DNA from: Candidatus Binatia bacterium | Lineage (GTDB): Bacteria; Desulfobacterota; Binatia; UBA1149; CAITLU01 | Direction of reading: 5' to 3' | DNA: 39,468 nt | NCBI GenBank assembly: GCA_046261745.1 | Contig: JBHEOD010000004.1 | Span: 2,528 to 41,995 of the forward strand | Shown here: piece after piece, positions 29,845 to 38,762 of the stretch | Numbering within the stretch: position 1 is the stretch's first letter | Layout: each line of letters starts with the position of its first letter | Made by a program: the position numbers and the translations under genes | Notes under the pieces: generated by a model | Database searches by the model: none | Told to the model about the DNA's origin: nothing | The model's input: the letters and a program-made list of their open reading frames with translations, nothing else

Positions 29845-30876
29845 ATGGTGGACGCCATCTCCCAGACTTGCGGAAACGACAACCGCGCGGGGGAAGCTGC
29901 CGTGGCGGCGAAGTGCTTCTCCCGCATCGTCGTGCTCGACGGCGCTACTCTGGATCCCGGCGACAATCCCTGGGACGAGATCGCGGCGCTCGGCCCCCTC
30001 GAGGTTCACGCCCGCACGCCCCCCGCCCTCGTGCTGGAACGGGCGCGCGGCGCCGACGTGATCCTCACGAACAAGACCGTTCTCGATGACGTGACGCTGG
30101 CTGAGCTTCCGGACCTGCGACTGCTCGGGGTGCTGGCGACCGGCGTCAACGTGGTGGACGTGGCCGCGGCCACGCGTCAAGGCATCACGGTCTGCAACGT
30201 TCCCGGCTACTCCGCCTACTCCGTGCCCCAGCACGTGTTCGCGCTGCTTCTCGAGCTGACCAACGCGGTGGGCGAACATGCAAACGCGGTACGGGGCGAC
30301 GAGTGGGCGCGGGCGGTCGATTTCTCGTTCTGGAAACGACCGCTGACCGAACTGGCCGGCAAGACGATCGGCATCATCGGCCACGGCCGCATCGGCGCCC
30401 GCGTGGGAGAGATCGCCCATGCACTCGGAATGAAGGTGCTCGCGTACAGCCCGAGCCGGAGCAACGGCGCGGGCTACGACGGTTTTGCGTGGGCTTCCAT
30501 CGCAGAGATCTTCGCCACCGCCGACGTAGTCACGCTGCATTGCCCGCTGACGAACGACAACGTGCGCTTCGTCAACTCCGACCTGCTGTCGACGATGCGC
30601 GACGGAAGCATCCTGGTGAACACCGCCCGCGGGGACCTCGTTGACGAAGCCGCGCTGGTGGATGCCCTGAACGCAGGGCGCCCGTCCGCCGCTGCCCTTG
30701 ACGTGCTCTCGCAGGAACCGCCGCCGACGGGCCATCCGCTAGCAACGCATCGCCGCTGCATCGTCACGCCGCACATAGCATGGGCGACGCTCGCCGCACG
30801 AAAGCGCGTGATGACGATCACTGCCGCCAACATTCGCACCTTCGCCGAGGGCTGTCCGCAAAACACCGTGCGCTGA
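29845..30876 (+). CDS. D-2-hydroxyacid dehydrogenase (glycerate dehydrogenase/hydroxypyruvate reductase-like); start uncertain
   Basis: IVVLDGATLDPGD, LATGVNVVD, GIIGHGRIG, LHCPLT, NTARG, LDVLSQEPP, TPHIAW. Confidence 0.9.
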   Translation: MVDAISQTCGNDNRAGEAAVAAKCFSRIVVLDGATLDPGDNPWDEIAALGPLEVHARTPPALVLERARGADVILTNKTVLDDVTLAELPDLRLLGVLATGVNVVDVAAATRQGITVCNVPGYSAYSVPQHVFALLLELTNAVGEHANAVRGDEWARAVDFSFWKRPLTELAGKTIGIIGHGRIGARVGEIAHALGMKVLAYSPSRSNGAGYDGFAWASIAEIFATADVVTLHCPLTNDNVRFVNSDLLSTMRDGSILVNTARGDLVDEAALVDALNAGRPSAAALDVLSQEPPPTGHPLATHRRCIVTPHIAWATLAARKRVMTITAANIRTFAEGCPQNTVR

Positions 30877-30896
30877 GCGCAACCGAGGAGACGTTC

Positions 30897-31277
30897 ATGG
30901 CCGACCGAACCACGAAAGCGCCCAAGACCTACGATTCGTTCGTGCAGGAATTTCCCCGCCTCGGCGAAGCGTGGGAGTCGATGCGCCGGGCAGAGGAGGA
31001 AGGCCCCTTCGACAGGCGGACCATCCGGCTGCTCAAGCTCGCCGTCGCCGTCGGCTCCGGCAAGGAGGGCCCGGTTCATTCGAGCGTGCGCAAGGCAAGG
31101 TCGGCCGGCGTGAGCGACGCGGAGATCCGTCACGTCGTCGCGCTCGCAGCCAGTACCATCGGGCTGCCTCCGGCCGTCGCAGCCTACTCGTGGGTGATCG
31201 AAGAACTCGCGAAAGGCGACGCGAGAAAGACAGACGGAGCAGTGGAAACTGTGGACAACGGCACGCGCAACGCTTGA
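30897..31277 (+). CDS. Carboxymuconolactone decarboxylase/AhpD-like family protein
   Basis: GAGGAG RBS, ATG 30897. RLLKLAVAVG..EGPVHSSVRKA..AGVSDAEIRHVV...TIGLP; no CxxC. Confidence 0.8.
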   Translation: MADRTTKAPKTYDSFVQEFPRLGEAWESMRRAEEEGPFDRRTIRLLKLAVAVGSGKEGPVHSSVRKARSAGVSDAEIRHVVALAASTIGLPPAVAAYSWVIEELAKGDARKTDGAVETVDNGTRNA

Positions 31278-31302
31278 CCGCTGCGGCGTCGCCGCGTACA
31301 AA
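31274..31302 (+). promoter_or_regulatory. Putative sigma70 promoter for the leader-MFS transcript
   Basis: TTGACC (31274-31279), 17 nt spacer, TACAAA (31297-31302). Confidence 0.55.
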
Positions 31303-31313
31303 CGACGCTCATC

Positions 31314-31397
31314 ATGTTCGCCGCCTTTATTACGAACCTTCCGGTAACGTCCAAGCGCATGCGTTGGCATGGCGCCAAGGCGTTGCGGTTCGTTTGA
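31314..31397 (+). CDS. Putative 27-aa leader peptide MFAAFITNLPVTSKRMRWHGAKALRFV
   Basis: ATG 11 nt after the -10 box; TGA at 31395-31397. Its last codons form one arm of an alternative hairpin. Below the ORF-track length cutoff. Confidence 0.5.
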   Translation: MFAAFITNLPVTSKRMRWHGAKALRFV

Positions 31398-31513
31398 AGC
31401 GCTGAGCTCCAGGAACCGCAACCCTTCGCCGACGCCGGCCGAAGGTTGAAGCGGTTCTCCTCCTCTCCTCCCGCTTTCTCTCTCCGGTTCCGGCTTCGGC
31501 GCGGAGAGAGGCC
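31382..31513 (+). promoter_or_regulatory. Putative ribosome-dependent attenuator (alternative hairpins, anti-SD stem)
   Basis: 31382-31391 pairs with 31413-31422 (10 bp); 31413-31428 can instead pair with 31440-31457; CTCTCTCCG (31478-31486) pairs with CGGAGAGAG (31502-31510), covering the SD. Confidence 0.6.
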
Positions 31514-32734
31514 ATGCGAGAAACGATAGTCCCGACAAGCATTTCCGCGGCAATCCCGTTCGTGGACACGTCCACGCGCACCGCGCTGTGGTCGCCCGCC
31601 TTCGTGCGCCTGCTGCTCGCCGGCAGCGCGTACGGCTTCGCCTTCTCGAGCTTTCACCTGATGCCCAAGTATCTCGCGGTCGAGTTCGGTGCTTCGCCGT
31701 CGGCGATCGGCTGGTCGGCGGGTGTCTTCGGCATCGCGTCAGTCCTCACCAGCGTGCTGGTGGGAGCCTGGATCGATCGCGTGTCGCGCCGGAGCATGTT
31801 CGCGGCGTCCGCGTTCCTGCTAGCGGCGACCTCGATCGGTTTCGCATTCGTTGACGCGATGGGACCGGCCGTGTTCGTGCTGCGTGCGCTGCAGGGTGTC
31901 GCATTCACGATGCAGATGGCCTCGTTCTCGACACTCGTGGCCGAGCTCGCGCCGGCCGCTCGCCTCGGCGAAGCGGTCGGTCTGGCCGGCAGCAGCATGC
32001 TGATCATGAACGCGATTGCGCCGGCCATCGACGAACCGCTCGCGCGCGCCGCCGGCTGGCCTGCCGCCTACCTGCTGGCGGCCCTGGCATCGCTGGCGTC
32101 AGCTGCGCTGGTGCTCGAGACGCGCACGAAGAGGCGCGTGCTGCGCGCCGGCAACGGCTCGCTGGTCGCGGTGCTGCGCCGCCCGACCACACGCGTGTAC
32201 TGCGGCGTCACGTTCCTGACATCGATCGCGTTCGCCACCATGTTCACGTTCCTTCAGCCGGCGGCCCTCGCCGCCGGATACCGGGACGTCGGATCCTTCT
32301 TTGTGGCGTATGCGGCAGCGGCCTGCGCGGTGAGGCTTCTGGCCGGCTGGCTGCCCGATCGGTACGGACGCCGGCGCGTCGCGATCTGGGCGCTGGTGCC
32401 GTACGCGGCGGTGGTGGCCTACGTGGCGGGCTTTGGTCCCACGTCCCTCGTTGCGATCGGCGCGGTGTTCGGGTTCGCGCACGGCGTGTTCTTTCCCGCG
32501 CTCAATGCGCTGGCCATCGAGAGAACCTTGGTGGACGAGCGCGGCCGCTTGCTGACGGTGTTCGCGGGCACCTTCAACCTGGGAGCGTGGGGTGGGGCGG
32601 CCGTGCTGGGACCGGTGGTGGAGACCTGGGGCTACGGCGCGGTGTTTGCGATCGGCGCGGCGTGCGCCGTCGCCGCCCTGGTGGTGCTCGCCCGCACGAG
32701 TGGTTTTACGCTGCCTGAAGAAGCAGTGGCGTGA
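31514..32734 (+). CDS. MFS transporter
   Basis: About 12 hydrophobic segments; motif A in GAWIDRVSRR and GWLPDRYGRR; LRALQG. Confidence 0.9.
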   Translation: MRETIVPTSISAAIPFVDTSTRTALWSPAFVRLLLAGSAYGFAFSSFHLMPKYLAVEFGASPSAIGWSAGVFGIASVLTSVLVGAWIDRVSRRSMFAASAFLLAATSIGFAFVDAMGPAVFVLRALQGVAFTMQMASFSTLVAELAPAARLGEAVGLAGSSMLIMNAIAPAIDEPLARAAGWPAAYLLAALASLASAALVLETRTKRRVLRAGNGSLVAVLRRPTTRVYCGVTFLTSIAFATMFTFLQPAALAAGYRDVGSFFVAYAAAACAVRLLAGWLPDRYGRRRVAIWALVPYAAVVAYVAGFGPTSLVAIGAVFGFAHGVFFPALNALAIERTLVDERGRLLTVFAGTFNLGAWGGAAVLGPVVETWGYGAVFAIGAACAVAALVVLARTSGFTLPEEAVA

Positions 32735-33307: not shown

Positions 33308-34729
33308 TCAGGTTCCGAGGACGCGAATGTAGTCGGCTCGGATGGCTTCGATGCGTTCCTCGAGATCGTCGTGGTTCCAGTTGGTGGTTGGTACGGGCGG
33401 CAGCACCGTGACGGCCACGCTCGCCGGGCGAATGATGACGCCGTGCTTGGGCAGGGCATCGATCGAGTTGTGAATCACGATCGGCACGACGGGCACGCCG
33501 CCGGCCATCGCCATGCGAAAGGCACCTTTCTTGAAGTGTCCGAGCCGCGGCCCGAGGCTGCGCGTGCCTTCCGGCGCGATTGCGATCGAAAGGCCCCGGC
33601 GCAGCGCCTCAACCGCCGGCTCGAGTGCCTTGATCGCCTCCGCGTGATTGAAGCGGTCGATGAAAATGGTGCCGGCCAGTTCGAAGAGCTGTCCGAGCAC
33701 CGGAATCCCACGCACCTCCTGCTTGCTGATGCCGACGAAGTCGCGGCGAAGCAGCTTGCAGATCAACAACGGATCGATGCCGCTCTGGTGATTGAAGATG
33801 AACACGGCCGGCCGTTTCGACCACAGGTGCTCCTCGCCCTCGACCGTCACGTGAATGCCGGCCAGCGCGGTTCCGAGCTCGCCCCACGTCGTGGCGGCGA
33901 GGTTCACGGCCTGGCGAAGATCGCCGTCGAGAATCGCCGCCGGCAGCCCGAGCAGAAAGGACGGCACCACGCTCGCCATCGACAGCGAGCTGCGTACGAT
34001 GTCTGTCACGCTGGGCAATCCGCGACTCGAGAACGTACGAGCCGGCCAGATACGCTTGGCAGCGATCGACTGCAGGCGGCGCGAAGGATTGATCGGGCGC
34101 GGCTTGCCGACCATCAGCAGCAGCGGCAGGTCCTCGTCGCTGTCGGTGTAGAAATAGCTGTCGCCGAGTGCGATGCCGCGCTGGTTCGCGAAGAGCTGGG
34201 CGGCATCCGCCTTGCCTTGGCCGTAGCAGGCGGGCCGGACGATGTCGCCGGTGAGCTTGCCTTCCTTCACTTCGAGCTCGGTACAGAACACGTGCTCGAT
34301 GCCGAGCTCGCGGGCCACGGGCGCAACCTGGGAGCGCGTGGCCGACGAGATCACGGCCAGCGAGTGCCCCTTGGCACGATGCGCATCGACGAGCGCGCGT
34401 GATTCGGGGTAGATGCTGGCCGCGATGCTGCTTCCGAAGATGCGCTCGCCGATGGCTTCGAATTCGGCCTCGGACAGCCCGCGGACCATCGCGAGGCTCT
34501 CGGAAACGAAGGCCGAGAAGTTTTTCTGCCCGAGCTGGAACGCGGTGCCGGCCGCCAGCGCGGCGGCGATGTCGGTCGGTGCTGCGCGTCCACTTGTCAG
34601 CCATTCGCGCACGAAGGCGCCAGCGGAGAAACCCGCGATGAGGGTGCGGTCGAGGTCGAAGAACGCGCCGATCGCGGGGCCGGAAGGGCCTTCGTCGATC
34701 TCGCGGGTGAGGATGCCGTGATTGGTCAT
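33308..34729 (-). CDS. plsC: Bifunctional HAD-IB hydrolase / 1-acylglycerol-3-phosphate acyltransferase (Rv2483c-like)
   Basis: HAD motifs FFDLDRTL, ISSAT, GKA, YTDSDED; acyltransferase motifs NHQSGID, FIDR, PEGTRS. Confidence 0.88.
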   Translation of the reverse strand: MTNHGILTREIDEGPSGPAIGAFFDLDRTLIAGFSAGAFVREWLTSGRAAPTDIAAALAAGTAFQLGQKNFSAFVSESLAMVRGLSEAEFEAIGERIFGSSIAASIYPESRALVDAHRAKGHSLAVISSATRSQVAPVARELGIEHVFCTELEVKEGKLTGDIVRPACYGQGKADAAQLFANQRGIALGDSYFYTDSDEDLPLLLMVGKPRPINPSRRLQSIAAKRIWPARTFSSRGLPSVTDIVRSSLSMASVVPSFLLGLPAAILDGDLRQAVNLAATTWGELGTALAGIHVTVEGEEHLWSKRPAVFIFNHQSGIDPLLICKLLRRDFVGISKQEVRGIPVLGQLFELAGTIFIDRFNHAEAIKALEPAVEALRRGLSIAIAPEGTRSLGPRLGHFKKGAFRMAMAGGVPVVPIVIHNSIDALPKHGVIIRPASVAVTVLPPVPTTNWNHDDLEERIEAIRADYIRVLGT

Positions 34730-34770
34730 GGCCGGGGCGCGGACCATAGCACACGAACGCGTGCGTTGCG

Positions 34771-37311
34771 TTGCCCCCGGTCGCTGCTCTACAAGGACCG
34801 CTGGTGACTTCTTCCGCCCCCTCGCAGATCTCCGCCGTCGCGCCGGAACCGTATCCGGCAGCGACCTCTCGTTCGGCCTCCACAGACCTGGCGGCCGAGC
34901 CCGGCTGGCCCGTCGGGGCAGGCCGAGTCGTGTTCCTGCTCGATGCGTGCAGCAACCTCGAGAAGCGCATGCTCGAGGACTGGATCCGCCGCGCGAAGCC
35001 GGAGGCTACTCCGGACACGGCGATCGAAGCCGTGCCGATCCCCCCGTCGCGGCGCCGTTCCGCGCGCAAGCCGCGACCGAGCCTGGCCCGCCTCGAATCT
35101 GCCATCGCCGCCGGCGGCGATCCTTTGATGGCGCCGCTTCGCGTCGCCTGGTTCTCGGAGGCCACCGACGGGATTCGCCACTTGAGCGCGCTCGATATCG
35201 TGACGTTGACCGATCCACGCGACCCGGGGCCGCTGCGGCAGCGTTGGACGGCCGCGCGCCATCCCGGACGCGTGCGCGTGGTGGCCGGCGAACCTGCCCG
35301 CTTGTCGGAACTGCGCGATCGCTGGCGCGAGAGCGGAGGGCAGTACGAAACCGAAACGACGGGCCTCGCCGAGTTCGTCGCACGCCGGGCGGCGCTGGCG
35401 CTGGAGAGGGCGGAGCGACGACTGCGCGGCGCGCGGTACAAGGTTCCGCGCCTGGTCAGCGAGGATATTCTTGCGCGGCCTGCCTTTCGAGGCGGCATCG
35501 CGCGCCTCGCGCGCGAGCTCGGCAAGCCGGAGGACAAGGTTGCCGCGGATGCGGCGCGCTACCTTGCCGAGATCGCGGCCACGCACGATCCCTTCGTCAT
35601 CGACGTGGTCGCATGGTTGATCCGTGCTCTGTACCGGCGCGGCTACGGCGAGAACATCCACTACGACCGCGAAAGGCTCGAGCGTATCTACGCCACCGCC
35701 CAGCGCTACCCCGTGGTGTTCCTCCCCACGCACAAGTCGAATCTCGACCACCTGGTGCTGCAGTACGTGCTGCACGAGAACGGCCATCCGCCCAACCACA
35801 CCGCGGGCGGCATCAACATGAACTTCTTCCCGATCGGGCCGCTGATGCGCCGGGCAGGAGTGTTTTTCATCCGTCGCACGTTCAAGGACAACGCGATCTA
35901 CAAGTTCGTCCTCCATCACTACGTCGACTACCTGATCGAGAAGCGCTTCACGCTCGAATGGTACCTCGAGGGCGGACGGTCGCGCTCCGGCAAGCTCCTT
36001 CCGCCGCGCTTCGGAATGCTCGCCTACGTGGTCGACGCGTGGCAGCGCGGCAAGAGCGAGGACGTGGTGCTGCTGCCCGTCTCGATCGCGTACGACCAGA
36101 TCCAGGACGTCGGCGAGTACGTGGCCGAGCAGAGGGGGGCGGGCAAGGAGCGCGAGAGCTTCAGCTGGTTCCTGAAGGTGGTGCGCCGCCTGCGGCGCCG
36201 CTACGGCGACATTCATGTCCGCTTCGGCGAGCCGGTGTCCCTGCGGGAGTTCTACGGCGAGGCGGCCGCGCCGGCCGTCGCGGGGGATCCGGACGAGCGA
36301 AACCTCACGCTCCAGAAGCTCGCCTTCGAGCTGAGCGTGCGCATCAACCGCGCCACGCCCATCACGCCGACCTCGCTCGTGACGCTTGCGCTGCTCGGGG
36401 TGGGCGATCGCGCGCTCACCGTCGAAGAAACGGCCGCGGCCCTTACCAATCTCGTTGCCTACGTGGAGCGGCGCTGCCTGCCGACCACCGAGGAAGTCGA
36501 CCTTCGCCGGCCCGATGAGGTCAAGCGCGTGCTCGATCACCTCGTCGAGAACGGCGTGGTGTCGGTGTTCACCGAAGGCCCCGAGGCTGTCTACGCCATT
36601 CGCTCCGAGGAGTTCCTCACGGCCGCCTATTATCGCAACACCGTCATCCATTTCTTTGTGACAGGATCGATTGGCGAGGTGGCGCTCGCGGCCGCGATGG
36701 AAGCCGCGACCGGTGACCGGCTCGAGCTGTTCTGGTCGAAGGCCCTCGCGCTTCGCGACCTTCTGAAGTTCGAGTTCTTCTTCTCGGACCGCGCGGATTT
36801 CCGCGAGGAACTTCGCGCGGAGATGGCCGTTCACGATCCGGACTGGGAAGACCGGGTTCGGGCGGGAGGAAAGGAAGCCGAAGCCCTGCTTCTGTCGATC
36901 AAGCCGTTCAACTCGCATCGCGTGCTGCGGCCTTTTCTCGAAGCCTACCGCGTGGTCGGCGATCAACTCGCGCGTCTGCCCGCCGGAGTGAAGGTGGACG
37001 AGACGCGGTTCGTCGCGCAGTGCCTGGCCCTCGGCAAGCAGTACCAGCTGCAGCGTCGTGTCACGCGCGCGGAGTCGATCTCGAAAGTACTTTTCCAGAA
37101 CACGCTCCGGCTGGCTGCCAATCGCAACCTGCTCGAGGGCGGGCAAGGCGAGGAACTGGCCGCGCGGCGCCTTGCGTTTTCGCAGGAGATCCAGCGTGCG
37201 ATCCGGCGCGTGGATGCGATCGGCGTTCTTGCGGCCGGCCGGCGCACGGGCCTGCTCGGCCGCATTGACGAATCGGACGCCGGCGCGGCCGATCCGGGGA
37301 GGGAACCATGA
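34771..37311 (+). CDS. plsB: Glycerol-3-phosphate 1-O-acyltransferase (PlsB2-like); start uncertain (possibly GTG ~34804)
   Basis: HKSNLD (Hx4D), GVFFIRR, YLEGGRSRSGKL, PVSIAYDQ, LRDLLKFEFFF. Confidence 0.9.
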   Translation: MPPVAALQGPLVTSSAPSQISAVAPEPYPAATSRSASTDLAAEPGWPVGAGRVVFLLDACSNLEKRMLEDWIRRAKPEATPDTAIEAVPIPPSRRRSARKPRPSLARLESAIAAGGDPLMAPLRVAWFSEATDGIRHLSALDIVTLTDPRDPGPLRQRWTAARHPGRVRVVAGEPARLSELRDRWRESGGQYETETTGLAEFVARRAALALERAERRLRGARYKVPRLVSEDILARPAFRGGIARLARELGKPEDKVAADAARYLAEIAATHDPFVIDVVAWLIRALYRRGYGENIHYDRERLERIYATAQRYPVVFLPTHKSNLDHLVLQYVLHENGHPPNHTAGGINMNFFPIGPLMRRAGVFFIRRTFKDNAIYKFVLHHYVDYLIEKRFTLEWYLEGGRSRSGKLLPPRFGMLAYVVDAWQRGKSEDVVLLPVSIAYDQIQDVGEYVAEQRGAGKERESFSWFLKVVRRLRRRYGDIHVRFGEPVSLREFYGEAAAPAVAGDPDERNLTLQKLAFELSVRINRATPITPTSLVTLALLGVGDRALTVEETAAALTNLVAYVERRCLPTTEEVDLRRPDEVKRVLDHLVENGVVSVFTEGPEAVYAIRSEEFLTAAYYRNTVIHFFVTGSIGEVALAAAMEAATGDRLELFWSKALALRDLLKFEFFFSDRADFREELRAEMAVHDPDWEDRVRAGGKEAEALLLSIKPFNSHRVLRPFLEAYRVVGDQLARLPAGVKVDETRFVAQCLALGKQYQLQRRVTRAESISKVLFQNTLRLAANRNLLEGGQGEELAARRLAFSQEIQRAIRRVDAIGVLAAGRRTGLLGRIDESDAGAADPGREP

Positions 37312-38762
37312 GCGGCGGTTTCGCGTACGAGCCGTTGTCGGCCGCCGACAACACTTTTCTTGCGCTGGAGAACGGCGGCGCGCACATGCACATCGCCGCG
37401 ACCTCGGTGTTCGATTGCGGTTCGCTCGCGAACGCGGACGGCGGTGTGGACATCGACCGGATCCGCGCCTACGTCGAGTCACGCCTGCACCTCATCCCGC
37501 GCTACCGGCAGCGCCTCGCGTATGTCCCGTTCGGGCGCCTGCCGGTGTGGGTGGACGACGAGCACTTCAATATTTCTTATCACGTGCGGCACACGAGCCT
37601 GCCGCGGCCCGGAACAATCGAACAGCTCAAGCTGCTCGCCGCGCGTATCCAGTCGCAGCGCATCGACCGCGCCAAGCCGTTGTGGGAGTTCTGGGTCGTC
37701 GAAGGCCTGGAGGACGGCCGGCGCTTCGCGGTCATCCAGAAGACCCACCACTGCATGATCGACGGAATCTCCGGAGTGGACCTGCTGGCCGTGCTTCTCA
37801 GCCCGTTCCCGTCGACCAGCTTCGAGGCCGGACCGCAGTTCGTTCCGAGGCCTGCACCCACGGCCCCTGCGCTCGCGTTGTCGGAAGCCTGGCGCGGCGT
37901 GGCCGAACCTCTCGGGGCGCTCTTCTCGCTGACCTCACGCGTGGGTGATCCGCTGGGCCTCATGCGCGACGTGTTCGATGGGGTAGAAGGAATCGCCGAG
38001 ACGCTCACTTCCACCGCGAGGCCGGCGTCGGAGACGCCGTGGAACCGGCCGATCGGACCGCACCGGCGCTTCGATTGGCTGCGTCTCGATCTGGCCGAGA
38101 TCAAGAGCGTCAAGAACGTGCTTGGTGGAACGGTCAACGACGTGGTGCTCGCCACGGTGGCGGGTGCGGTGCGTCGCTTCCTGTTGCGGCGAGGCGTCGA
38201 TCCCGACGAACTTCGGATTCGCGCCAACGTGCCGGTAAGCGTGCGCAGCCTCGACGAACGAGGCAGCCTCGGCAATCGTATCGCGCTGTGGATGACCGAC
38301 CTGCCCGTGGACGAAGCCGATGCGATCGCACGCATCGAGCGAATCCGCATCACCACGCATCGCCTGAAGGAATCCAAGCAGGCGCTGGGAGCGCAGGTTC
38401 TCGCGAGCGTCAGCGACATGACCACGTGGAGACTGCTCGCCACCGCCGCGCGGCTGTCGATGCGCTCGCGGCCGTTCAACCTCGTGGTGACGAATGTGCC
38501 CGGCCCCCAGCTCGAACTTTTTATGCTCGATGCCGGCCTGCGCGAAATCTATCCGATGGTGAACCTGCTCGAGAACCAGGGGATCGGCGTGGCCCTCTTC
38601 AGCTACTGCGGCACGCTGCACTGGGGCGTCCTCGCCGACTGGGACCTGGTTCCCGACCTCGACGAGTTCGTCGCTGCCCTCGAGCGCTCCTTCGACGAAC
38701 TCCGCATCGCGGCGGGCTTGCCGGCGAGCGGAGCGAGCGGGGCCGCAAGCATCGGGATCTGA
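37308..38762 (+). CDS. Wax ester synthase/diacylglycerol acyltransferase (WS/DGAT)
   Basis: ATGA overlap with plsB. LSAADNTFL, PLWEFWVVEGL, catalytic HHCMIDG, TVNDVVL, NLVVTNVPGP. Confidence 0.93.
   Translation: MSGGFAYEPLSAADNTFLALENGGAHMHIAATSVFDCGSLANADGGVDIDRIRAYVESRLHLIPRYRQRLAYVPFGRLPVWVDDEHFNISYHVRHTSLPRPGTIEQLKLLAARIQSQRIDRAKPLWEFWVVEGLEDGRRFAVIQKTHHCMIDGISGVDLLAVLLSPFPSTSFEAGPQFVPRPAPTAPALALSEAWRGVAEPLGALFSLTSRVGDPLGLMRDVFDGVEGIAETLTSTARPASETPWNRPIGPHRRFDWLRLDLAEIKSVKNVLGGTVNDVVLATVAGAVRRFLLRRGVDPDELRIRANVPVSVRSLDERGSLGNRIALWMTDLPVDEADAIARIERIRITTHRLKESKQALGAQVLASVSDMTTWRLLATAARLSMRSRPFNLVVTNVPGPQLELFMLDAGLREIYPMVNLLENQGIGVALFSYCGTLHWGVLADWDLVPDLDEFVAALERSFDELRIAAGLPASGASGAASIGI

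Follow-up and report, generated by a model that had tools for sequence, protein, structure and literature searches.

What controls the transporter gene at this locus, and in response to which signal? The window analysed here, 39,468 nucleotides of DNA from a Candidatus Binatia bacterium (contig JBHEOD010000004.1, positions 2,528 to 41,995), carries a leader at 31274-31516. It is situated between a gene of the carboxymuconolactone-decarboxylase (CMD) family (30780-31277) and a gene encoding a 406-amino-acid major facilitator superfamily (MFS) transporter (31514..32734; Pfam MFS_1, E = 4.7e-42). Features lie on the plus strand unless stated otherwise. The source genome is metagenome-assembled, with 284 contigs and a completeness of 77.7%. 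An earlier note, made from the letters of this DNA, had proposed an attenuator with a leader peptide in front of the transporter gene, and a check of the sequence recovered every element that it named. With good, though not full, confidence, the leader can be considered a ribosome-mediated attenuator controlling the MFS gene. This reading is preferred because sister families carry a U-tract terminator at the corresponding hairpin, and because the same scaffold is found with runs of leucine codons before the leuA gene.

Conservation of the leader in related genomes

The full leader precedes the orthologous MFS gene at all 41 distinct loci where DNA upstream is available and a relative can be recognised. 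Records of the closest relatives are labelled Candidatus Binatia, uncultured Myxococcales or Deltaproteobacteria. Two sets of loci were used. From the first set, comprising 30 loci, 20 were examined (L001-L019 and L021), and 19 of these have the leader while L021 is devoid of it; L020 is cut by a contig end, and relatives of 28-33% identity (L022-L030) were covered by a motif scan only. The second set, comprising 46 loci, consists of 13 duplicates, 22 new loci with the leader, one locus without upstream DNA (L076), and ten more distant loci with no recognisable leader (L057-L060, L062, L067, L069-L071 and L077). The gene upstream of the leader varies by lineage, and the leader stays with the MFS gene.

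Under strict filters, a covariance model built from the 41 leaders, designated R1, had matches in 27 of 151 genomes from the class, and the MFS gene is present at 24 of the 30 loci that it returned. Sixteen of these MFS loci were examined; each contains the short upstream open reading frame (uORF) described below, and seven are new. In total, the leader family has about 48 members, spread over dozens of uncultured bacteria from soil. Two other R1 matches (L103 in genome G013 and L092 in genome G039) are followed by short open reading frames (ORFs) with no family match, and only a C-terminal MFS-like piece lies downstream of the match in G013. These two may be decayed or mis-assembled copies of the leader.

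Judged from the sequences, this conservation across lineages is the strongest support against a chance arrangement. The whole leader of the window is also more stable than its dinucleotide shuffles (z = -3.04), only one of 200 being equally stable. A relaxed pattern scan found the motif of the central hairpin in a single copy in the window's own genome. No match to Rfam was found in the window leader at E <= 1, or in seven related loci at E <= 0.5. Inside the MFS coding region, at 31972-32040 on the minus strand, the gabT RNA of Rfam is matched weakly (23.7 bits versus a gathering score of 45; E = 0.47), and this hit was dismissed as noise.

The promoter and the near-leaderless reading frame

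A promoter-like pair is located at 31274..31302, with TTGACC at 31274-31279, a 17-nt spacer, and TACAAA at 31297-31302; its -35 hexamer shares bases with the stop codon of the upstream CMD-family gene. A scan for consensus promoters returned no sites at the window leader because TACAAA lacks the final T. In ten family-level relatives, both hexamers are nearly invariant and the 17-nt spacing is kept, with a variable spacer sequence. A TTGnnn-17-TAnnnn-like pair precedes the uORF in nearly all 41 leaders, its end being 6-12 nt from the start codon (the distance is about 22 nt in L014, and L011 and L012 are ambiguous).

The predicted uORF, encoding the putative leader peptide, spans 31314..31397 and has 27 codons followed by a TGA stop codon (31395-31397). 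Its ATG lies 11 nt past the -10 hexamer and has no Shine–Dalgarno (SD) sequence upstream. Since this distance is short, the transcript probably begins only a few bases ahead of the ATG, giving a near-leaderless uORF message. The uORF was found in all 41 leaders, at a length of 26-45 codons, starting with ATG or, in three cases, GTG, and again with no SD sequence before it. Its stop codon is separated from the MFS ATG by 87-144 nt in these leaders, and length differences within groups amount to whole codons. The earlier note had proposed looking for conservation of the uORF upstream of orthologous MFS genes, and the predicted ORF is indeed conserved in position, frame and placement of the stop codon, in 41 of 41 loci and in the seven further ones.

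By its composition, the frame appears marked as coding. The GC content of the uORF at the three codon positions is 0.61, 0.57 and 0.75, compared to 0.67 in the non-coding leader and 0.86 at the third position of the MFS gene. In 23 representative uORFs there is not a single in-frame stop codon, versus about 13 expected from dinucleotide shuffles. The enrichment in lysine and tryptophan, and the universal tryptophan codon, point in the same direction.

These features bear on one alternative, namely that the uORF is not read by ribosomes at all. The leader would then be a protein- or metabolite-binding RNA, or simply the terminator of the upstream gene followed by a structured 5' untranslated region, and the ORF a by-product of high GC content. 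Open frames are common at 66% GC, the constraint on the peptide is weak, and the sequence of the central hairpin is more conserved than a terminator requires. Nevertheless, this explanation is very improbable, as it does not account for the short and constant spacing between a conserved promoter and the start codon, the missing stop codons, the lysine and tryptophan enrichment, or the periodicity of GC content by codon position. Moreover, the stop codon always falls just past the antiterminator strand, leuA leaders built on this scaffold contain runs of leucine codons, Rfam has no match, and the leader remains with the MFS gene when the upstream gene changes between lineages.

Another ORF of 26 codons, in a different frame, is present at 31369-31449 and overlaps the end of the uORF and the central hairpin. 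A similar ORF was found only in L004, and it is probably due to chance at the local GC content.

Terminators in sister families and leucine leaders on the same scaffold

Downstream of the uORF, the window contains a central hairpin (31423..31445), which is the homologue of the terminator stem of sister families. In most Binatia-type families this hairpin is followed by 5-7 T residues within 8 nt, forming a canonical intrinsic terminator. The U-tract is missing in the window's family (L001-L010, all ten members) and in the records labelled Polyangiaceae or Polyangiales.

The R1 model also matches leaders before the gene for 2-isopropylmalate synthase (leuA) at four loci (L100, L106, L107 and L108). 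An NCBIfam scan covering L100, L106 and L108 confirmed the gene by NF002991, at 672-792 bits versus a cut-off of 455, and the product at L107 starts like that at L106. These leaders consist of a promoter, a short uORF, a G-rich antiterminator, and the same terminator core with a U-tract. Immediately ahead of the antiterminator strand, their uORFs have 3-6 leucine codons, and several of these are CTA. The arrangement is that of a textbook leucine attenuator built on the same scaffold, and it shows what the scaffold does.

A leucine leader is also present in the window's own genome, on another contig (L112), before a bacterial-type leuA. It has a 24-codon uORF with four consecutive leucine codons and its own SD sequence, followed by a canonical terminator with a stem and a T-run. 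As the host thus uses U-tract terminators, the absence of the U-tract from the MFS leader is meaningful. The long-form LeuA had no match in 13 genomes of close relatives at E <= 1e-60, a strict cut-off.

Mutually exclusive pairings and the proposed mechanism

The central hairpin is kept by compensatory changes across the leaders. In the alignment, 91.5% of cells are paired and nine of ten pairs have changed on both sides, which was matched by none of 500 shuffles; slid controls gave 31-70%.

The 5' side of this hairpin has a competitor within the uORF. The antiterminator strand (31371..31391) comprises segment 1 (31382-31391) and, further upstream, bases complementary to the 5' arm of the central hairpin. 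Segment 1 forms a perfect 10-bp inverted repeat with segment 2 (31413..31422), which acts as the putative switch strand; among 500 shuffles, 12 contain a perfect inverted repeat of 10 bp or longer. Segment 2 may instead pair with segment 3 (31451..31458, pairing with 31412-31419), closing the base of the central hairpin, and segment 3 can alternatively pair with 31471-31477. The latter pairing, between AAGCGG (31449-31454) and CCGCTT (31471-31476), is weak. The predicted energies are -20.1 kcal/mol for 1:2, -23.4 for the compound 2:3 hairpin (31413-31457), -12.3 for the central stem alone, and -5.7 for 3:4.

Segment 4 (31471-31477) belongs to a pyrimidine tract (31456..31488) that also includes the anti-SD strand (31477-31486) and is a candidate Rho loading site; the region 31456-31492 is composed of 19 C, 14 T, 4 G and no A. 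The anti-SD strand forms the 5' side of the SD-sequestering hairpin (31477..31511), whose 10-bp helix (31477-31486:31502-31511, -20.2 kcal/mol) buries the SD sequence, located within 31502-31511, shortly before the MFS ATG at 31514. This helix had been described in the earlier note and is real, being retained even in leaders where the loop gained inserted hairpins (L002, L004 and L006). A further element had been missed by that note, namely segment 0 (31332..31351), an upstream partner of segment 1. In the minimum free energy structure it contributes to helices 31332-31338:31387-31393 and 31344-31351:31379-31386, the region 31332-31393 reaching -30.8 kcal/mol. The untranslated uORF is predicted to fold as one long hairpin with the tryptophan codon in the apical loop.

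Within the window's family, the two competing helices are real and conserved, with standard pairs in 85% of cells for segments 1:2 and in 78.8% for segments 2:3. In the 2:3 helix, one A-U pair has been replaced by G-C, and only 2 of 500 shuffles reach its covariation score. Covariation, which the earlier note had suggested checking, therefore supports the central hairpin and segments 2:3, and fails for segments 1:2 and for the antiterminator helix in fixed alignment columns. Column-wise comparison does not resolve covariation of the antiterminator, as the register of its pairing differs between lineages, and a per-sequence test of complementarity was used in place of the fixed-column test. In this test, the final 36 nt of the uORF match the 5' side of the central hairpin better than dinucleotide shuffles do, with a mean z of -2.34 and p <= 0.05 in 25 of 37 leaders. 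For the window, the antiterminator duplex has -28.9 kcal/mol compared to -15.9 for shuffles (z = -4.4), and none of 200 shuffles is as good. Antiterminator and terminator pairings in these leaders exclude each other, and the antiterminator strand is contained in the last part of the uORF. Between the 3' end of this strand and the last base of the uORF stop codon there are 0-17 nt, so a terminating ribosome would cover the strand.

In the proposed mechanism, the uORF would be translated from a near-leaderless message starting shortly before its ATG. An unhindered ribosome would reach the TGA codon and cover the antiterminator strand at 31371-31391; segment 2 would then pair with segment 3, closing the compound hairpin at 31413-31457, which is the OFF state. 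A ribosome delayed upstream of that point, most likely within the region Lys14-Trp18, would leave the antiterminator strand free to capture segment 2 as well as the 5' arm of the central hairpin. The OFF hairpin would be blocked, and the transporter expressed. When no ribosome is present, segment 0 would hold segment 1, likewise favouring the OFF state.

The leader peptide and its possible signal

The candidate stall region consists of Lys14-Arg-Met-Arg-Trp18 (31353..31367), with the tryptophan codon at 31365-31367. Since this codon lies 14 nt upstream of segment 1, a stall there is compatible with the geometry of an attenuator. A tryptophan codon occurs in 41 of 41 uORFs, and also in all seven uORFs found by the covariance model, at one or two per uORF and never in a run. 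All 23 lineage representatives contain an in-frame tryptophan, while shuffles give it with a frequency of 0.20-0.66 each; the resulting chance product of 10^-9.7 treats the lineages as independent and so overstates the case. Compared to in-frame shuffles, the peptides are enriched in lysine (z = 7.6) and tryptophan (z = 5.4), as well as in valine, threonine and histidine, and depleted of arginine, proline, aspartate and stop codons. Lineage-specific motifs around the tryptophan survive synonymous changes, an example being the arginine codon after tryptophan, CGA versus CGC. The earlier note had drawn attention to the RMR sequence as an instance of the R-x-R motif of macrolide arrest. It occurs in four of six members of the genus and in none of the other genera, and so this parallel is not supported.

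Several codon preferences accompany these residues. In leaders of all lineages, codons flanking the tryptophan tend to end in A or T, with a third-position GC content (GC3) of 0.54-0.57 at positions -1, +1 and +6. The lysine codon directly upstream of the tryptophan codon is often AAA, and in several families a CTA leucine codon stands four codons past the tryptophan.

What signal might such a peptide convey? A shortage of charged tRNA, for tryptophan or perhaps lysine, can be named as a tentative first candidate. Nascent-peptide-dependent arrest triggered by a ligand or drug is a slightly weaker one, and slower elongation from whatever cause, with the whiB7 uORF considered below as a precedent, is weaker again.

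The more specific version of the first candidate is hungry-codon attenuation dedicated to tryptophan, possibly lysine, in which uncharged tRNA-Trp would stall the ribosome at codon 18 and the MFS protein would import tryptophan or a precursor. Tryptophan is the only residue found in every uORF, it is flanked by codons ending in A or T (GC3 of 0.54 at -1 and 0.57 at +1), and related genomes use the same scaffold with leucine codons before leuA. Considering the distances, a stall at the tryptophan codon would free the antiterminator strand in all lineages. Even so, this version is rather unlikely. There is one tryptophan codon and no run of codons for an amino acid linked to the regulated gene, and the enrichment of lysine exceeds that of tryptophan. 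NCBIfam, PDB, the gene neighbourhood and the protein atlas offer no link between the MFS protein and tryptophan, and the likely trpE of the window's genome, where three chorismate-binding genes were found, has no comparable leader.

The second candidate, a ligand- or antibiotic-dependent arrest peptide, assumes that the nascent chain with its lysine and tryptophan residues arrests the ribosome together with a small molecule, such as the transporter substrate or a drug. TnaC, SpeFL and the Erm leaders are examples of arrest of this kind. The in-frame enrichment of lysine, tryptophan, valine, threonine and histidine, the depletion of aspartate, proline and arginine, and the persistence of tryptophan-adjacent lineage motifs through synonymous codon changes (arginine CGA/CGC) are in its favour, as is the fact that the regulated gene encodes a transporter. 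However, no motif besides tryptophan is common to the lineages, the ratio of nonsynonymous to synonymous polymorphism (pN/pS) is near 1 in most groups, RMR is not conserved, the TnaC residues (aspartate at +4 and a terminal proline) are missing, and the MFS protein does not score as a resistance pump. Such an arrest peptide is unlikely on balance. Less likely still is its boldest form, in which the lysine- and tryptophan-containing chain would be a new arrest peptide sensing a small molecule, plausibly the transporter substrate or free tryptophan, within the ribosome, and passing the signal by a hairpin relay both to transcript elongation and to the opening of the SD sequence. If this were true, a small-molecule arrest sensor would be common to two uncultured or poorly studied lineages, in records titled Binatia and Polyangiaceae.

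Contrary evidence and the route to expression

Several observations weigh against ribosome-mediated attenuation in the window, or against its simplest form. The window has 4 T residues in the 8 nt after the stem and no U-tract, so an intrinsic terminator is not present in the usual sense; as the leuA attenuator of the same genome does have a U-tract, plain intrinsic termination is doubtful here. The fixed-column antiterminator helix shows no covariation in a MAFFT alignment of 41 sequences (53% of cells paired, with 496 of 500 shuffles scoring as well), and covariation of segments 1:2 within the family is no better than in shuffles (95-106 of 500). Selection on the peptide is weak, with pN/pS values by group of 0.34, 0.53, 0.84, 0.85, 0.88, 1.09 and 1.13. 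A single tryptophan codon is unusual for a hungry-codon sensor, as seen from the trp, leu and his leaders. Folding with and without the segment covered by a ribosome, a check put forward in the earlier note, did not reveal a switch at equilibrium: the central and SD hairpins of the window persist whether the ribosome occupies the stop codon or the tryptophan codon. Finally, masking the 5' arm of the central hairpin leaves 13 of 41 leaders, including that of the window, unchanged, and 4 of 41 respond in the opposite direction; in the window the SD sequence stays closed, its unpaired fraction moving from 0.07 to 0.08.

The same masking opens the SD sequence in the predicted structures of 24 of 41 leaders, in which the liberated G-rich 3' arm of the hairpin can pair with the anti-SD strand. 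This modelling points to a relay in which the terminator's 3' arm acts on the anti-SD strand. In the window, the SD helix is closed in all thermodynamic states that were modelled. By analogy with a known system described below, the OFF state in the window's family would most likely act through the closed SD sequence and Rho-type polarity or termination, a route favoured here because the U-tract is gone. Weak intrinsic termination at the 2:3 hairpin is the second choice. Another candidate route, a second uORF after the 3' arm of the hairpin that would open the SD sequence by coupling, was rejected since such an ORF is absent from most of 26 leaders examined.

The transporter and its gene neighbourhood

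The function of the regulated gene offers few clues to the signal. No NCBIfam family comes near its cut-off for the MFS protein. Resistance families score far below theirs, with 21.4 bits for cmlA_floR (cut-off of 450) and 18-20 bits for Tet families (cut-offs of 650-975). A sequence search found no relative of the protein in PDB, and its nearest protein-atlas clusters are MFS groups of Binatota and Myxococcota. Neither the PDB search nor NCBIfam nor the protein atlas gave a hint of its function. The gene neighbourhood was discarded as a functional clue because neighbours differ between lineages.

Near the MFS gene of the window, a fusion gene of a HAD hydrolase and 1-acylglycerol-3-phosphate acyltransferase is located at 33308-34747 on the minus strand, and this gene also adjoins the MFS gene in the two family-level loci that were scored (L036 and L037). 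It belongs to a downstream run of lipid-metabolism genes (33308-38762), which also includes a PlsB-like glycerol-3-phosphate acyltransferase (34771-37311) and a wax-ester synthase/diacylglycerol acyltransferase (37308-38762). At four loci labelled Polyangiaceae or Polyangiales (L065, L068, L072 and L074), a second MFS gene directly follows the leader-controlled one on the same strand, and a gene for a Ser/Thr protein kinase lies upstream.

Comparison with known regulatory systems

The leader shares much with the classical trp, leu, his and ilv attenuators, including a short upstream ORF, an antiterminator at the 3' end of that ORF in competition with a hairpin further downstream, an upstream protector pairing and, in sister families, a U-tract terminator. 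It differs from them in its single conserved tryptophan codon instead of a codon run, its near-leaderless uORF, and its control of a transporter gene rather than a biosynthetic enzyme. In addition, the window's family has a strong SD-sequestering hairpin and lacks the U-tract.

The earlier note had compared the locus with ribosome-stalling leaders such as ermC, cat/cmlA and tnaC. The general logic holds, in that the leader behaves like a ribosome-read attenuator, as seen from the U-tracts of sister families and the leuA scaffold. With these systems it has in common a leader ORF, alternative hairpins and a sequestered SD sequence, and the conserved tryptophan is also found in TnaC. The particular geometry is different. 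In ermC, cat and cmlA, one arm of the SD hairpin lies in or next to the leader ORF, whereas in the window the SD sequence is about 105 nt from the uORF stop codon, and its partner (31477-31486) begins about 80 nt past that stop, so these systems do not fit. Neither do their arrest motifs, which are not conserved here, nor the MFS protein, which has no match to a resistance family. TnaC is characterised by a conserved tryptophan, an aspartate four residues later and a proline as the last residue before the stop codon. Only the tryptophan is present in the window, where position +4 is lysine and the last residue is valine, and no lineage has the aspartate and proline pattern.

A closer parallel for the variant without a U-tract is the toiL-topAI system of E. 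coli. Its uORF is reported to sense ribosome stalling, while a structure in the RNA blocks the binding of ribosomes at the main gene and transcripts left untranslated are terminated by Rho (PMC12121999). This is the favoured model here, with a role for Rho assigned by analogy. The two systems have no sequence relation, and in the window the partner of the SD helix is not adjacent to the uORF.

Two mycobacterial systems illustrate other aspects. The whiB7 uORF is reported to be variable in sequence and enriched in one amino acid; stalling on it leads to antitermination, and its coding sequence determines which amino-acid starvation is sensed (PMC10274678). That enrichment concerns alanine, in contrast to tryptophan and lysine here, and the regulated gene encodes a transcription factor in another bacterial lineage. 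In polycysteine uORF attenuators, a leaderless short ORF is reported to regulate downstream genes as the first cistron (bioRxiv 10.1101/834739). They rely on runs of cysteine codons, unlike the window uORF.

The literature searches made found no description of such a leader, and the papers retrieved in one of them name neither Binatota nor Binatia. The leader can be classed as a hitherto undescribed representative of a familiar type of system, and as a testable regulatory element, absent from Rfam, in a lineage known only from metagenomes. Identification of its signal would also give a lead on what this functionally unannotated transporter family carries. The leader family combines a near-leaderless uORF, an invariant tryptophan, a covarying hairpin and an SD relay. 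Its occurrence in related genomes with and without a U-tract provides a natural comparison, which could show how a switch based on intrinsic termination has been rewired to influence expression by another route.

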